From positions 1,184,001 through 1,248,000 of the forward strand of contig CP084167.1 of assembly GCA_021513715.1 (NCBI GenBank): a stretch of 64,000 nucleotides of DNA. The letters are read 5' to 3'. Made by a program: the position numbers and the translations under genes. This document shows positions 5,007 to 58,743 of the stretch, piece after piece. This DNA comes from Candidatus Heimdallarchaeum endolithica (GTDB taxonomy: Archaea; Asgardarchaeota; Heimdallarchaeia; Heimdallarchaeales; Heimdallarchaeaceae). Numbering within the stretch: the stretch's first letter is position 1; each line of letters opens with the position of its first letter. The notes beneath the pieces are model-generated. The model searched no databases, had not been told where the DNA came from, and was given only the letters and a program-made list of their open reading frames with translations.

Positions 5007-6010
5007 AAGCATGTCCAAAAATTCTTTTTCACCTACTAAACGGTCCGAAGGAGTAAAAGGTAGTTGTAACAGAGAAGAGAACTGTACAAGGTAGAGAGGA
5101 TGGTGGAGGGTAAACGATCAAGGATTGGGGGAAGAGAGAGTTTAAGGAGACCAAAGACGTGTTCAATACTACTACGATACTCGGGATGATGATTACGACG
5201 ATACAGACCAGGGTAGAGACGATGAGCTTGAACTATTGGTCCGAGGGGAGGAGGAGAGGGATAACGAGCATTACTTTTTGGGGGAATAACAGGAAAAAAG
5301 GAATGTTGGCTAAGAAGTCCAACGATATTTTCTGTCCAGTAGGCACAGTCTCCATAAAATCGCAAGAAAGGTCTCAAGAGTGCAGAAGGAAGTTTCTGCC
5401 AGAGTAAACCGAAGACTTTACTATCATGAGTGTTACTAGCAGAATGAGCGAGAGAGACTATAGCTCGAGAGGGTAAACCAACTATAAGGTGTATCTTCCA
5501 GAAAAGTTTAGAGGTTTTCTTTAGTGTCCCTCTTGACCATTTGAGAAAACGCCAAACAGAAGCTTGACGGATTTTAAACCCTGAACTATCCACTGCCATA
5601 GCTTTCAAGCCTTTTTTCCTCACTATTTCCCTACCTAACTCTATTATCCACTGCTCTAAGATTTTACTTTCTGTCGCTCTCCACACTGCATGAAAAGTAG
5701 ATTTAGAAGGAATCTTCTTCATCCACCCCTCTTCTATCAAAAAATCGCATAAAGACAACTTTTCCTCTAACTTCCTCCAAGCTATCCCTTCTATTCTAGC
5801 AATGATTGCTAAAGCCAGTATCACCCATCTTTCTGCTATTCTCTTTCTCCCTCTCTTGCTTTCTCTCGGTTCCTCTTTCACCAGTTTCTTAAGGAAAGGT
5901 TCATTAATGATTATGAATTCTCTTGCTTTGTGGGGGTCTATGATCTGAAAGAAATTCATACTTCCGACATAAACCCCCACATTAATAAAAATTAATTTTT
6001 GGACATGCTT
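5007..6010 (-). mobile_element. Insertion sequence, copy 1 (1004 bp, IS5/IS4-like DDE)
   Basis: 17-bp TIR AAGCATGTCCAAAAATT; duplication TTATGAAT at 4999-5006 and 6011-6018 (10 bp if the TIR is read one base shorter). Confidence 0.95.
5036..5980 (-). CDS. DDE transposase (DDE_Tnp_1-like, IS5 family-like)
   Basis: AVDSSGF, KIH, YGDCAY and YRSSIEHVF motifs. Confidence 0.9.
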   Translation of the reverse strand: MGVYVGSMNFFQIIDPHKAREFIIINEPFLKKLVKEEPRESKRGRKRIAERWVILALAIIARIEGIAWRKLEEKLSLCDFLIEEGWMKKIPSKSTFHAVWRATESKILEQWIIELGREIVRKKGLKAMAVDSSGFKIRQASVWRFLKWSRGTLKKTSKLFWKIHLIVGLPSRAIVSLAHSASNTHDSKVFGLLWQKLPSALLRPFLRFYGDCAYWTENIVGLLSQHSFFPVIPPKSNARYPSPPPLGPIVQAHRLYPGLYRRNHHPEYRSSIEHVFGLLKLSLPPILDRLPSTILSTLYSSLLCYNYLLLLRTV

Positions 6011-37929: not shown

Positions 37930-38070
37930 ATGATTGCAATGGATAGTGGATTTATTGCTTTATTAATTATCATTGTGATTAGCGGATCATTACTAATTTA
38001 TGATCTATTTAGATTTTTTATTATAATAAAAAAAGAGATTACGAGAAAAAAAAATGTCCCAGAAAACTGA
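37930..38070 (+). CDS. Small single-TM protein (46 aa)
   Basis: Below the ORF-track cutoff: MIAMDSGFIALLIIIVISGSLLIYDLFRFFIIIKKEITRKKNVPEN; overlaps the nucS start. Confidence 0.5.
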   Translation: MIAMDSGFIALLIIIVISGSLLIYDLFRFFIIIKKEITRKKNVPEN

Positions 38071-38824
38071 ATTTCTTAAACCTATTTTATCAAGTGAATT
38101 GATAACCACCTTAAACGCAGCTATTGGCGAAAGAATGCTAATACTAGCAGGTAGTTGCACAGCTTTTTTTGATGGAAGAATAAAGTCAACTTTAGAATTA
38201 GGAGAAAGAATATTAATAATTAAAAAAGATTTATCCATTCTAATGCATGGAGTTTCAGGTGTAAAACCTTTAAATTGGCAAAAACCAAAACAAGGGCCAA
38301 TTTCATTCCTTAAAGAGAAAAATGAATTAGTTATGCATACAAAAAGGAAAAAAACAGAAGAAGAACTTTGGATCAGATTTCGCTCTATCGATTTTGTTAT
38401 TTTATGGGCAGGTAGTGATTTTTCTTCTTTAGAGATTTATGGAGATGAATCTGATCTTGTTAAATATCTAGTTGAACACCCTTCAATAATTGAAAAAGAT
38501 TTACAAATTCTTTCAACAGAATTTCCTACTGATGTAGGGTATGTTGATATTAAAGCTCTTGATAACAAAAAGAAACTACTCATAATTGAGGTAAAAAAGA
38601 GAAAAACTACTCCTTCAGATGCTTTTCAATTAAAAAGATACAAAGATTATTTCGAGAAAATAGAAAAAAAGAAAGTTCGAGCTATGCTTATTGCTCCTTC
38701 CTTTCCAGACAAGGTGAGAAAGTATTTAGAAAACAATGATTTAGAATCTAAAGAAATTGATTGGAAAACTATCTTTCCCACTATCTCTAGAGAGAAAAAT
38801 GTAAAAATTGATGATTTTTTTTAA
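38054..38824 (+). CDS. nucS: Mismatch-specific endonuclease NucS/EndoMS
   Basis: GR..STL..GER..IIK.D, P.NWQ, VDI, IEVK and QL.RY motifs. Confidence 0.93.
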   Translation: MSQKTEFLKPILSSELITTLNAAIGERMLILAGSCTAFFDGRIKSTLELGERILIIKKDLSILMHGVSGVKPLNWQKPKQGPISFLKEKNELVMHTKRKKTEEELWIRFRSIDFVILWAGSDFSSLEIYGDESDLVKYLVEHPSIIEKDLQILSTEFPTDVGYVDIKALDNKKKLLIIEVKKRKTTPSDAFQLKRYKDYFEKIEKKKVRAMLIAPSFPDKVRKYLENNDLESKEIDWKTIFPTISREKNVKIDDFF

Positions 38825-40368: not shown

Positions 40369-42324
40369 CTACTTTCTATTTTCTAACTTTTTTGACCAAG
40401 TATCTTTTAGTGTTATAATGCGATTGAAAACTAAATTGTCTTTTGTTGTATCTTTGTCAATAATGAAATAACCTAATCTCTCGAATTGGTACCTTGATCC
40501 TACTTCTGCTTTTGCGAGGAATGACTCCACAAAACCTTTTACTATTTTTAATGAATCAGGGTTTATGTAATCAGTGAAATCTTTTCCTTCCTCTACATCT
40601 AAAGGATTTTCTTTTAAGAATAATCTATCGTATAACCTTATTTCTGCAGGTATAGCATTCTTCTCAGATATCCAATGAATACTTACTTTTACTTCTGGGT
40701 CGTCTTTAGTAGAACAGGTTTTTGAATCTGGATCATAAGAACAGTGTAACTCTTTGATTTTTCCTGTTTTTTCATCTTTAACTACTTTCTCGCATTTGAT
40801 TGTGTAACTATACTTCAACTTAACTTTTCTTCCTGGTGCGAGTCTGTAGAAATCTTCAGGAGGTTTTTCCTTGAAGTCACTATTATCGATATAGATTACT
40901 TTACTGAAAGTTATTACTCTTTTACCCATATCTTTGTTTCGAGTATGATTATTCACTTCTATTTTTTCTTCTTTGTCATCTGGATAATTGGTTATTATTA
41001 CTTTCAAGGGCTCAATTACACTCATAACTCTGGGGCAGCGTTCTTCTAGATCTTCCCTTATATAATGTTCCAATATTGAAAAATCAACTATTCTTTCTCT
41101 TTTAGATACACCTATACCATCAGTGAACTTTTTTATTGCTTCAGGAGTAACTCCTCGTCTTCTGAAAGCAGCAATTGTAGGCATGCGAGGGTCATCCCAA
41201 CCATCCACTATTCCTTCACTTACCAAGTGTAGCAGTTTTCTTTTACTCATCACCGTATAAGAAAGATTTAATCTAGCGAACTCTATTTGCTGTGGATGAA
41301 AGATAGGATTTCCTTCCTCATCTTCTAGTTGTTCTAGAAACCAATCATACAGCTCTCTATGTACCTCAAATTCTAAGGTACAAATAGAGTGCGTTATTCC
41401 TTCAATAGAGTCTTCTAAACCATGAGCCCAATCATATAATGGATATATACACCATTTGTCTCCAGTATTATGGTGTGTTCTATGTAATATTCTGTAAATT
41501 ACAGGATCCCTCATTAAGAGATTAGGGTGGGACATATCAATTTTAGCTCGTAAGACTTTTTCTCCATCAACGAACTCTCCATTCTTCATTCTTTCAAATA
41601 AAGCCAGATTTTCTTCTATGCTCCTATTTCTATACGGGCTTTCTTTTCCTAGTTCTGTTACTGTTCCTCTTAATTTTCTTATTTCTTCAACACTCAAATC
41701 GTCAACATATGCTTTTCCTTTTTTAATTAATTGAACTGCATATTCATATAATCTATCAAAATAGTCAGAAGCAAAGAAGAGTCTATCTTCCCAATCAGCT
41801 CCTAGCCATTTAACATCTTCAATAATTGATTTTACATATTCTTCCTCTTCAGTAATGGGGTTAGTGTCATCAAACCTGAGGTTGAATTTACCATTATACT
41901 CTTTTGCTATCCCATAATTGAGGTTAACAGAAACAGCATGTCCAATATGTAGATACCCATTTGGTTCTGGAGGAAAACGAGTATGAACTCTTCCATTATA
42001 TTTTCCTGTTTTCATATCTTCGTTTATTATTTTACGAATAAAATCAATTTCTTTTGTTTCTTTTACTTCTTCTTTCTCTTCCGAAAGTAGCTCAGGGTAT
42101 TTTCGTTGAATAAGTTGCTTAGTTTCATCTAGAGGTTGTGCATTGAGTTTTTCTATCATATCAAATACAATTTCTTTTAATTTTTTTGCACGACCTCGAA
42201 GCTCAGGATGGTTTGACATTAATTTACCCATCACAGCGCTAAGTTTCGCGTTGCCAAATTCTAGAATATTCTCTAGTACATATTTTTCAATGATGTCTTC
42301 TTCGGAATTCATTGTGACAAACAA
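40369..42324 (-). CDS. glnS: Glutamine--tRNA ligase with archaeal GluRS-like N-terminal domain
   Basis: [37 protein letters not shown] and MSKRKL motifs; C-terminal beta-barrels with QFERLGYF. Confidence 0.92.
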
Positions 42325-58558: not shown

Positions 58559-58633
58559 TGGTAGTCCCCAGGAGATTTGAACTCCTGCCCCCGGATCCAG
58601 AGTCCGGGATCCTTGCCACTAGACTAGGGGACT
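58559..58633 (-). tRNA. tRNA-Gln(CTG), CCA encoded
   Basis: Acceptor AGTCCCC/GGGGACT; anticodon arm CCGGA-CTCTGGA-TCCGG; T loop TTCAAAT. Confidence 0.95.
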
Positions 58634-58668: not shown

Positions 58669-58743
58669 TGGTAGTCCCCAGGAGATTTGAACTCCTGCCA
58701 CCGGATTCAAAGTCCGGAATCCTTGCCGCTAGACTAGGGGACT
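58669..58743 (-). tRNA. tRNA-Gln(TTG), CCA encoded
   Basis: Same body as above; anticodon arm CCGGA-CTTTGAA-TCCGG. Confidence 0.95.

Follow-up and report, generated by a model that had tools for sequence, protein, structure and literature searches.

A 64,000-nucleotide stretch of the Candidatus Heimdallarchaeum endolithica chromosome (contig CP084167.1, positions 1,184,001 to 1,248,000; hereafter the window) contains on its reverse strand, at 40369..42324, a gene for what is quite probably a working glutaminyl-tRNA synthetase (GlnRS), the core of which would have been acquired from bacteria by horizontal transfer, fused to the N-terminal domain (N-domain) of an archaeal glutamyl-tRNA synthetase (GluRS), and retuned for archaeal tRNA. 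Reviews published in 2022 state that no archaeon has GlnRS, and ascribe this to incompatibility of archaeal tRNA-Gln with the enzyme (PMC9499178, PMC8762117). Automated annotation pipelines already label such proteins from Heimdallarchaeota bins as 'glutamine--tRNA ligase/YqeY domain fusion protein', and one preprint mentions in passing a GlnRS beside cox genes in Hodarchaeales and Kariarchaeaceae; no description of an archaeal GlnRS chimera was found in the literature searched.

In the mechanism we propose, this enzyme would attach free glutamine directly to both tRNA-Gln species of the archaeon. Its core, having entered Heimdallarchaeia from bacteria, would have been fused, in frame, with a copied N-terminal helical domain of ~85 residues, one carried by every archaeal GluRS, while its acceptor-stem reader would have been retuned from the Asp that recognizes G3:C70 in E. 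coli to a Val matching U3:A70. The N-domain would most likely act as an extra tRNA-binding handle, one that may offset the missing bacterial identity elements (G73, G3:C70) in the manner of the YqeY-like and GatB-like domains appended to the GlnRS of Deinococcus and of eukaryotes. The enzyme would run beside the GluRS plus GatDE route rather than replace it.

Domain composition and the bacterial-type core

The open reading frame is uninterrupted and comprises 651 codons from a TTG plus a stop; translation most likely begins at the ATG at 42312, for a protein of 647 aa, because the 36 longest relatives all begin at a Met aligned to residue 5. From its N-terminus the protein (all coordinates on the reverse strand) consists of the N-domain, a five-helix bundle homologous to that of archaeal GluRS by profile search, family scan, AF2 model and structural match (residues 5-84, 42073..42312); an acidic linker of low confidence in the AF2 model (residues ~85-95, 42040..42072); a class I catalytic (Rossmann) domain, tRNA-synt_1c, with its acceptor-binding insertion (residues 113-413, 41086..41988); and two beta-barrel anticodon-binding domains, proximal (residues 430-531, 40732..41037) and distal (residues 549-623, 40456..40680), identified by Pfam as PF03950 and PF20974. 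Alignment with E. coli GlnS places HIGH at residues 126-129 and MSK at 359-361, both inside the catalytic domain, along with Val321 (41362..41364), the equivalent of E. coli Asp235, and a six-residue acidic insertion at about residues 335-340 (41305..41322). The motifs quoted in an initial sequence-only reading of the window are present in the frame (22 protein letters not shown, and the N-terminal IEKYVLEN...HPELR), and the residue equivalences proposed there hold in the alignment (E. coli Y211=Y297, C229=C315, F233=F319, Q255=Q346); E. coli R30 corresponds to R116.

That reading had called the protein a GlnRS, and model scores bear this out. With the NCBIfam glnS model TIGR00440 it reaches 706.8 bits (cutoff 425.8), while the archaeal GluRS models TIGR00463 and PRK04156 fall below theirs (398 vs 401.75 and 389 vs 516, respectively), even with gltX model alignments that begin at residues 7-9 and thus span the N-domain. 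The best-scoring model of all is PRK14703 (GlnRS/YqeY fusion), with 842 bits, matched at positions 8-561 of 769; its C-terminal YqeY part is unmatched, and Pfam returns no PF02637 hit in the protein. The core (residues ~92-651) is, over residues ~90-645, 59-66% identical to the ~560-residue GlnRS of many bacterial phyla; its identity to the organism's own GluRS is just ~30%.

Residues that distinguish GlnRS are retained in the window protein and throughout the N-domain-bearing archaeal clade (numbering of E. coli GlnS, via alignment). The glutamine-pocket residues R30, Y211, H215, S227, C229, F233 and Q255 are identical in it and in 19/19 clade members; E34, HIGH, D66, R133, R192 and [M/L]SK are kept, or conservatively exchanged between K and R, in it and in all 19; and the anticodon readers R341, R402, Q517 and R520 are likewise retained. 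The roles given to these pocket, catalytic and anticodon residues follow E. coli complex structures. What differs is the pair of acceptor-stem readers, E. coli Leu136, of the unpairing loop, and Asp235 being Val222 and Val321 here, which we read as a probable adaptation to A1:U72 and U3:A70 and not as loss of function. The core is under strong purifying selection, with ratios of nonsynonymous to synonymous substitution rates (dN/dS) of 0.04-0.13 in nine pairwise comparisons.

To place the core relative to known enzymes, the core region of each of several queries was scored against solved PDB structures. The window core gives 647 bits with E. coli, 655 with Pseudomonas aeruginosa, 440 with human and 409 with yeast GlnRS, as well as 593 with T. 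thermophilus and 533 with D. radiodurans. In the same order (E. coli, P. aeruginosa, human, yeast), an Omnitrophota relative (L050) gives 682, 749, 471 and 421 bits, a Desulfobacteraceae relative (L015) 743, 792, 487 and 429, and a GlnRS from a second group of Heimdallarchaeia, family f5 (L092), 650, 686, 465 and 401. The archaeal GlnRS therefore have no special affinity to eukaryotic GlnRS, and on these scores they resemble branches of the bacterial type that evolve somewhat faster.

Characterized systems offer points of comparison. The window core is co-linear with bacterial GlnRS (E. coli GlnS, 1GTR/1QTQ; P. aeruginosa, 5BNZ) from E. coli residue ~9 to the end, but it occurs in an archaeon, with an extra N-terminal domain of ~90 residues and a six-residue acidic insertion after residue ~334, and its presumed substrate has A1:U72, U3:A70 and A73 where E. 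coli tRNA-Gln has U1:A72, G3:C70 and G73. The Deinococcus radiodurans GlnRS/YqeY fusion (2HZ7; PRK14703) likewise combines a bacterial-type core with a small appended helical helper domain, but in the window protein that domain is N-terminal, and its homology is with the N-domain of archaeal GluRS instead of PF02637. Eukaryotic GlnRS (yeast Gln4, 4H3S; human QARS, 4YE6) shares the layout of an N-terminal helical helper before a GlnRS core, although its core is much more distant from that of the window (409-440 bits), whose N-terminal domain is single and short; no match to the eukaryotic R1/R2 families PF04558/PF04557 was found by Pfam in the window protein or its N-domain relatives. The window chimera is an assembly independent of eukaryotic GlnRS, made from a bacterial core and an archaeal domain.

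In this GlnRS subfamily, extra domains are apparently often appended. A C-terminal YqeY domain (PF02637) is found in many close bacterial relatives, and among the homologues collected (P0304-P0343, P0318-P0327) are fusions to PF02637, to PF19269 (~1030-1140 aa) or to PF04015 (897 aa).

The N-terminal domain and archaeal GluRS

A profile built from 24 N-domains was searched against 1.84 billion representative proteins, yielding 560 hits at E<=1e-3, of which 65 were at E<=1e-10. All ten full-length hits tested (10/10) exceed the archaeal GluRS cutoffs and match the profile at their N-terminus; named hits come from Thermoprotei, Nitrososphaerota, Sulfolobales and Heimdallarchaeota. The organism's own GluRS aligns co-linearly with the window protein from residue 1. 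The AF2 model of the domain is a five-helix bundle (pLDDT 82.5), and its superposition on predicted archaeal GluRS models, at their N-termini, gives TM scores of 0.76-0.90. The resemblance to GluRS, which the sequence-only reading had noticed in the first 85 or so residues, is far beyond chance. M. thermautotrophicus non-discriminating GluRS (3AII) shares this N-terminal ~85-residue domain with the window protein, as well as the GlxRS fold and the beta-barrel anticodon domains; the window enzyme is set apart from it by the GlnRS-specific pocket and by the G36-recognition and unpairing loops.

A separate phylogeny of the N-domain (83 columns), one of the checks proposed with that reading, groups the GlnRS N-domains with that of the GluRS of Heimdallarchaeia family f5 (support 94/91). 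The f5 GluRS is also the best match to the N-domain among the GluRS tested, with 78 bits compared to 43.5 bits for the organism's own enzyme, and a Heimdallarchaeial GluRS is weakly favoured as donor. The domain was copied and not moved, because the host GluRS retains its own. N-domain dN/dS is 0.09-0.34 in 8 of 9 pairs, dS being saturated in the other. Many short metagenome proteins (P0122-P0271, 50-300 aa) also match the profile; they are probably gene fragments at contig ends, and the two that were looked up lie on contigs of 606 bp and 2.2 kb.

Host genome, tRNA-Gln and the indirect route

The gene lies on a single closed contig of 3,326,783 bp, ~31% G+C throughout, and its own G+C (0.33) resembles that of its flanks (0.31). 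The host, of the genus Ca. Heimdallarchaeum, is an archaeon: the contig is a single one of 3.33 Mb, the closed genome of Ca. Heimdallarchaeum aukensis (CP084166) encodes an orthologue 95% identical at the protein level, and GatDE and an archaeal GluRS are present. That a bacterial gene was misplaced in an archaeal bin during assembly or binning is a suspicion that these genomes invite, being metagenome-derived, but we give it a negligible chance, given the single contig, the matching base composition and the orthologue in a sister species' closed genome, and given that the bacterial-type core is in frame with an archaeal domain in an arrangement kept in 29 genomes of two families. The public sequencing runs found to contain the genome are DNA metagenomes from sediment and vents, with no RNA run listed among them.

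The same genome encodes an archaeal GluRS (503 bits) and, in adjacent genes, GatD (491 bits) and GatE (405 bits), as well as glutamine synthetase (GlnA) and AsnRS. GatB was searched for in the genome and not found; GatDE is therefore its sole amidotransferase, and with it the genome has a full indirect glutamine route. The search for gatD, gatE and gltX, another check that had been proposed, thus recovered all three, so that the genome combines the direct route with the indirect one. Of 83 Heimdallarchaeia genomes, 75 have a GatD above cutoff, GlnRS carriers among them, and it is plausible that GatDE cannot be lost while GluRS still mischarges tRNA-Gln. Genomes of another family, f7 (G080-G090), have two full-length GatD copies, both above cutoff, in addition to a chimeric GlnRS.

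Two tRNA-Gln genes of archaeal type, the only ones that ARAGORN detects in the genome, lie 16.6 kb from the synthetase gene on the same strand. The tRNA-Gln(CUG) at 58559..58633, a presumed substrate, has A1:U72, G2:C71, U3:A70, G10, A73 and an encoded CCA, and the tRNA-Gln(UUG) at 58669..58743 has the same acceptor stem and A73. The E. coli counterpart has U1:A72, G2:C71, G3:C70 and G73. Elsewhere in Heimdallarchaeia (families labelled f1 to f7, f1 being that of the window), tRNA-Gln has A73 in f3, which is without GlnRS, and in f7 and genera g1-g4 of f1, while in f5, whose GlnRS is without the N-domain, C3:G70 and G73 occur in all sampled (12 genomes, both isoacceptors).

In E. coli, Asp235 reads G3:C70, and mutating it leads to mischarging. 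This residue is V/I in 19/19 GlnRS with the N-domain, T/S in 12/12 from f5, and D/N in 72/77 bacterial relatives. It could be compared directly with base pair 3:70 in a small sample of 8 enzymes (E. coli and 7 bacterial loci with an adjacent tRNA-Gln), in which it is D in 4 of the 5 enzymes facing G3:C70, T in the fifth (from Omnitrophota, L031), and N or V in all three (3/3) facing C3:G70. The pattern is consistent with co-adaptation of enzyme and tRNA. The L031 locus (Ca. Tantalella remota) has a bacterial tRNA-Gln with A73 (5231-5305), which is unusual for bacteria; its GlnRS has Thr at 235 and Ile at 136, and is from the group that, among bacteria, stands closest to the chimeric archaeal clade. 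Pre-adaptation of the donor lineage to A73 is possible.

GlnRS and tRNA-Gln genes are tightly linked in f5 and at many f1 and f7 loci (L085-L114, L159), typically at ~0.1-1.2 kb, and at 2-4.6 kb in a few from f1; the tRNA genes are convergent with GlnRS in f5 and co-directional in f1 and f7. The same linkage is seen in 7 of 78 bacterial relatives (L021, L031, L043, L046, L050, L066, L076), the Omnitrophota sister group included, whereas the genes in the window have drifted to a distance of 16.6 kb. Possible causes of the linkage are co-transfer, integration at tRNA genes and co-regulation.

Sister genera of the same family contain odd tRNA genes between tRNA-Gln(UUG) and tRNA-Gln(CUG), just downstream of GlnRS (L132:1327-1400 on G013:C187, L150:1321-1395, L146:2458-2532, L144:2442-2516, L145:564-638). 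One of them has a loop of the normal 7 nt whose anticodon, UUA, would read UAA, together with A73 and an A1/A72 mismatch; four near-identical copies have a 6- or 8-nt loop with UUUAGG and differ by one base, which suggests constraint because GlnRS dS is ~0.3. A function in recoding or suppression, with charging by GlnRS, is possible. In the window's genome, blastn-short finds no odd or suppressor-like tRNA of this kind, and 'Stop/Pyl/SeC' calls made by ARAGORN in intron mode were taken as false positives with long introns.

The odd tRNAs, and the UUA anticodon in particular, are one reason to consider that the protein is a redundant or repurposed GlnRS-like paralogue, serving a special tRNA or regulation and taking no part in the normal supply of Gln-tRNA-Gln; the intact GluRS/GatDE route, GatD being retained in most Heimdallarchaeia including GlnRS carriers, is the other. 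We consider this improbable. The catalytic and glutamine-pocket residues and those reading C/U34-U35-G36 are all conserved, purifying selection is strong, both tRNA-Gln isoacceptors have the required anticodons along with G2:C71, G10 and a weak 1:72 pair, residue 235 appears fitted to the acceptor stem of the normal tRNA-Gln, and the genome at hand has no odd tRNA to serve.

Around the GlnRS gene lie ordinary chromosomal genes, which encode a KaiC-like ATPase, an M24 peptidase and a P-type ATPase. A gene for an archaeal-type NucS mismatch endonuclease, again an ordinary archaeal flank, is located 1.5 kb away at 38054-38824 on the forward strand.

Transfer, domain function and significance

A survey of 400 Asgard genomes for GlnRS above cutoff found it in 41, all within class Heimdallarchaeia and divided among three families. 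In f1 it is present in 21/31 genomes (frames of 645-687 aa) and in f7 in 8/12, in both with the N-domain; in f5 it is present in 12/22, with shorter frames (578-602 aa) and without the N-domain. None was found in this survey in f2-f4, which belong to the same order, or in f6. The six-residue acidic insertion just downstream of residue 235 is private to the N-domain-bearing archaeal clade. Indels provided no markers of nesting; all are clade-specific and none is shared with particular bacteria.

A careful maximum likelihood (ML) tree of the core was constructed from 53 rows (LG+G4), rooted on Asgard GluRS and leaving out eukaryotic GlnRS. In it the N-domain clade is monophyletic (100/100) and falls beside Omnitrophota, Chitinophagaceae and one other bacterium (87/98), with f7 branching from within f1, a sign that the chimera spread between archaea. 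The f5 clade (100/100) falls elsewhere, among Desulfobacterota and Anaerolineales (96/94). A 122-row tree gives the same picture, and the backbone is short. Direction of transfer, bacteria to archaea, would follow from the ML topology together with the similarity scores and the narrow archaeal distribution. The suggestion in the sequence-only reading that a bacterial GlnRS was acquired and then adapted by capturing a domain is supported by these trees, in which the core falls among bacterial sequences, and by the 59-66% identity and the homology of the N-domain. Two independent transfers are not taken as proven: a quick tree proved far from the optimum, a constrained tree being 69 log-likelihood (lnL) units better.

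Several results weigh against parts of the reading given here, and the first concern the tree. Approximately unbiased (AU) tests on the careful tree reject neither a single archaeal clade (25.7 lnL units worse, p=0.32) nor monophyly of the sampled bacteria (delta lnL 28.0, p=0.28), so that the number of transfers (one or two) and a strict nesting of the archaeal clades inside bacteria lack statistical backing. Eukaryotic GlnRS is absent from the tree, the PDB bit scores standing in for it; a search for 'longer' homologues with the core returned bacterial fusion proteins only and no eukaryote. The second of these AU results, from a tree without eukaryotes, is among the points that would favour a vertically inherited or basal Heimdallarchaeial GlnRS bearing on the origin of the enzyme, for example as sister to eukaryotic GlnRS or as donor of the bacterial one; so are the host's membership in the archaeal class closest to eukaryotes and the parallel with eukaryotic GlnRS of an N-terminal helper domain before the core. 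This we hold to be very improbable. Heimdallarchaeial cores score lower with the human structure than bacterial relatives do (440-465 vs 471-487 bits) and far higher with those of E. coli and P. aeruginosa (647-686 bits), the ML topology puts both archaeal clades among bacteria, the distribution is patchy (three families, with none in sister families of the same order), and the N-domain matches archaeal GluRS and not the eukaryotic R1/R2 Pfam families. The alternative offered by the sequence-only reading, a lineage informative on GlnRS origin, therefore finds no support in the human/yeast scores (440/409 for the window and 465/401 for f5, against 471-487/421-429 for bacteria) and is further weakened by confinement of the gene to three families of one archaeal class. 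On present evidence the locus does not revise the origin of eukaryotic GlnRS.

Other adverse points concern the N-domain as a tRNA-binding element. The domain is near neutral (median charge -0.5, isoelectric point ~6, followed by an acidic linker), unlike a generic RNA-binding appendage, and in the only crystal structure of a GluRS that has it, from M. thermautotrophicus, residues 1-85 are a disordered 'YQEY domain' (Nureki et al., PMC2978374). Searches give no link of the domain to YqeY: Pfam gives no PF02637 hit at E<=10 among 24 members, hhalign against 31 bacterial GlnRS YqeY tails gives a probability of 9%, and Foldseek against the PDB returns nothing at E<=0.001. Structural comparison by VIA-align matches the domain to YqeY (8XJG) with Z 5.0 and a root-mean-square deviation of 1.7 A over 46 residues, and, again weakly at Z 5.0, to the second subdomain of the N-terminal domain of human GlnRS; values of this size may be noise among helical bundles, and the top hits (Z<=6.2) are unrelated helical proteins.

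The same observations (lack of basic charge, disorder in the crystal, no significant sequence link to YqeY/GatB tails, structural matches that may be noise) are what would be expected if the N-domain of an otherwise identical enzyme were a protein-docking or localization module, tying the synthetase to archaeal partners such as binders of the GluRS N-domain, translation factors or GatDE. Taken as a whole this alternative seems to us rather unlikely, though on the narrower question of a tRNA handle over partner docking we see the balance as about even. Against docking, the literature classes the GluRS N-domain as YqeY-type (PMC2978374), the N-domain model aligns, with TM 0.75, to the N-terminal region of a cluster of eukaryotic GlnRS, and many bacterial relatives carry a C-terminal YqeY domain; the N-terminal domain of eukaryotic GlnRS is GatB-like and binds tRNA-Gln (PMC3333875). 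Furthermore, f5, which is without the N-domain, changed its tRNA discriminator instead, which argues for a role in tRNA recognition.

This last point can be extended into a tentative proposal, to which we assign somewhat less than an even chance: that N-domain capture (f1, f7) and the A73 to G73 switch (f5) are alternative solutions to the problem of running a bacterial GlnRS on archaeal tRNA-Gln while GluRS/GatDE operates, as part of an invasion of direct charging that is still in progress. The N-domain would then replace recognition of G73 and G3:C70, re-enacting the gain of a GatB/YqeY-like N-terminal tRNA sensor by eukaryotic GlnRS. Here, too, there are contrary data: among the tRNA-Gln of f1 genus g5, A73 is found in the UUG isoacceptor but either A73 or G73 in the CUG one, and very few independent lineages underlie the association of the N-domain with A73 and of its absence with G73.

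The best reading is that an imported bacterial GlnRS was refitted for an archaeal host, and that it is not an ancestor of eukaryotic GlnRS. The locus is a natural counter-example to the rule that archaea lack GlnRS, and it appears to show how the barrier presented by archaeal tRNA-Gln can be crossed, with a domain from the host's GluRS and an altered acceptor-stem reader in one case and, in a sister family, with a changed tRNA discriminator. The system bears on the evolution of tRNA identity and on the function of the archaeal GluRS N-domain, and its enzyme/tRNA pair, possibly orthogonal, might interest genetic-code engineers. Its coexisting direct and indirect pathways to Gln-tRNA are the intermediate state that models of GlnRS spread assume.

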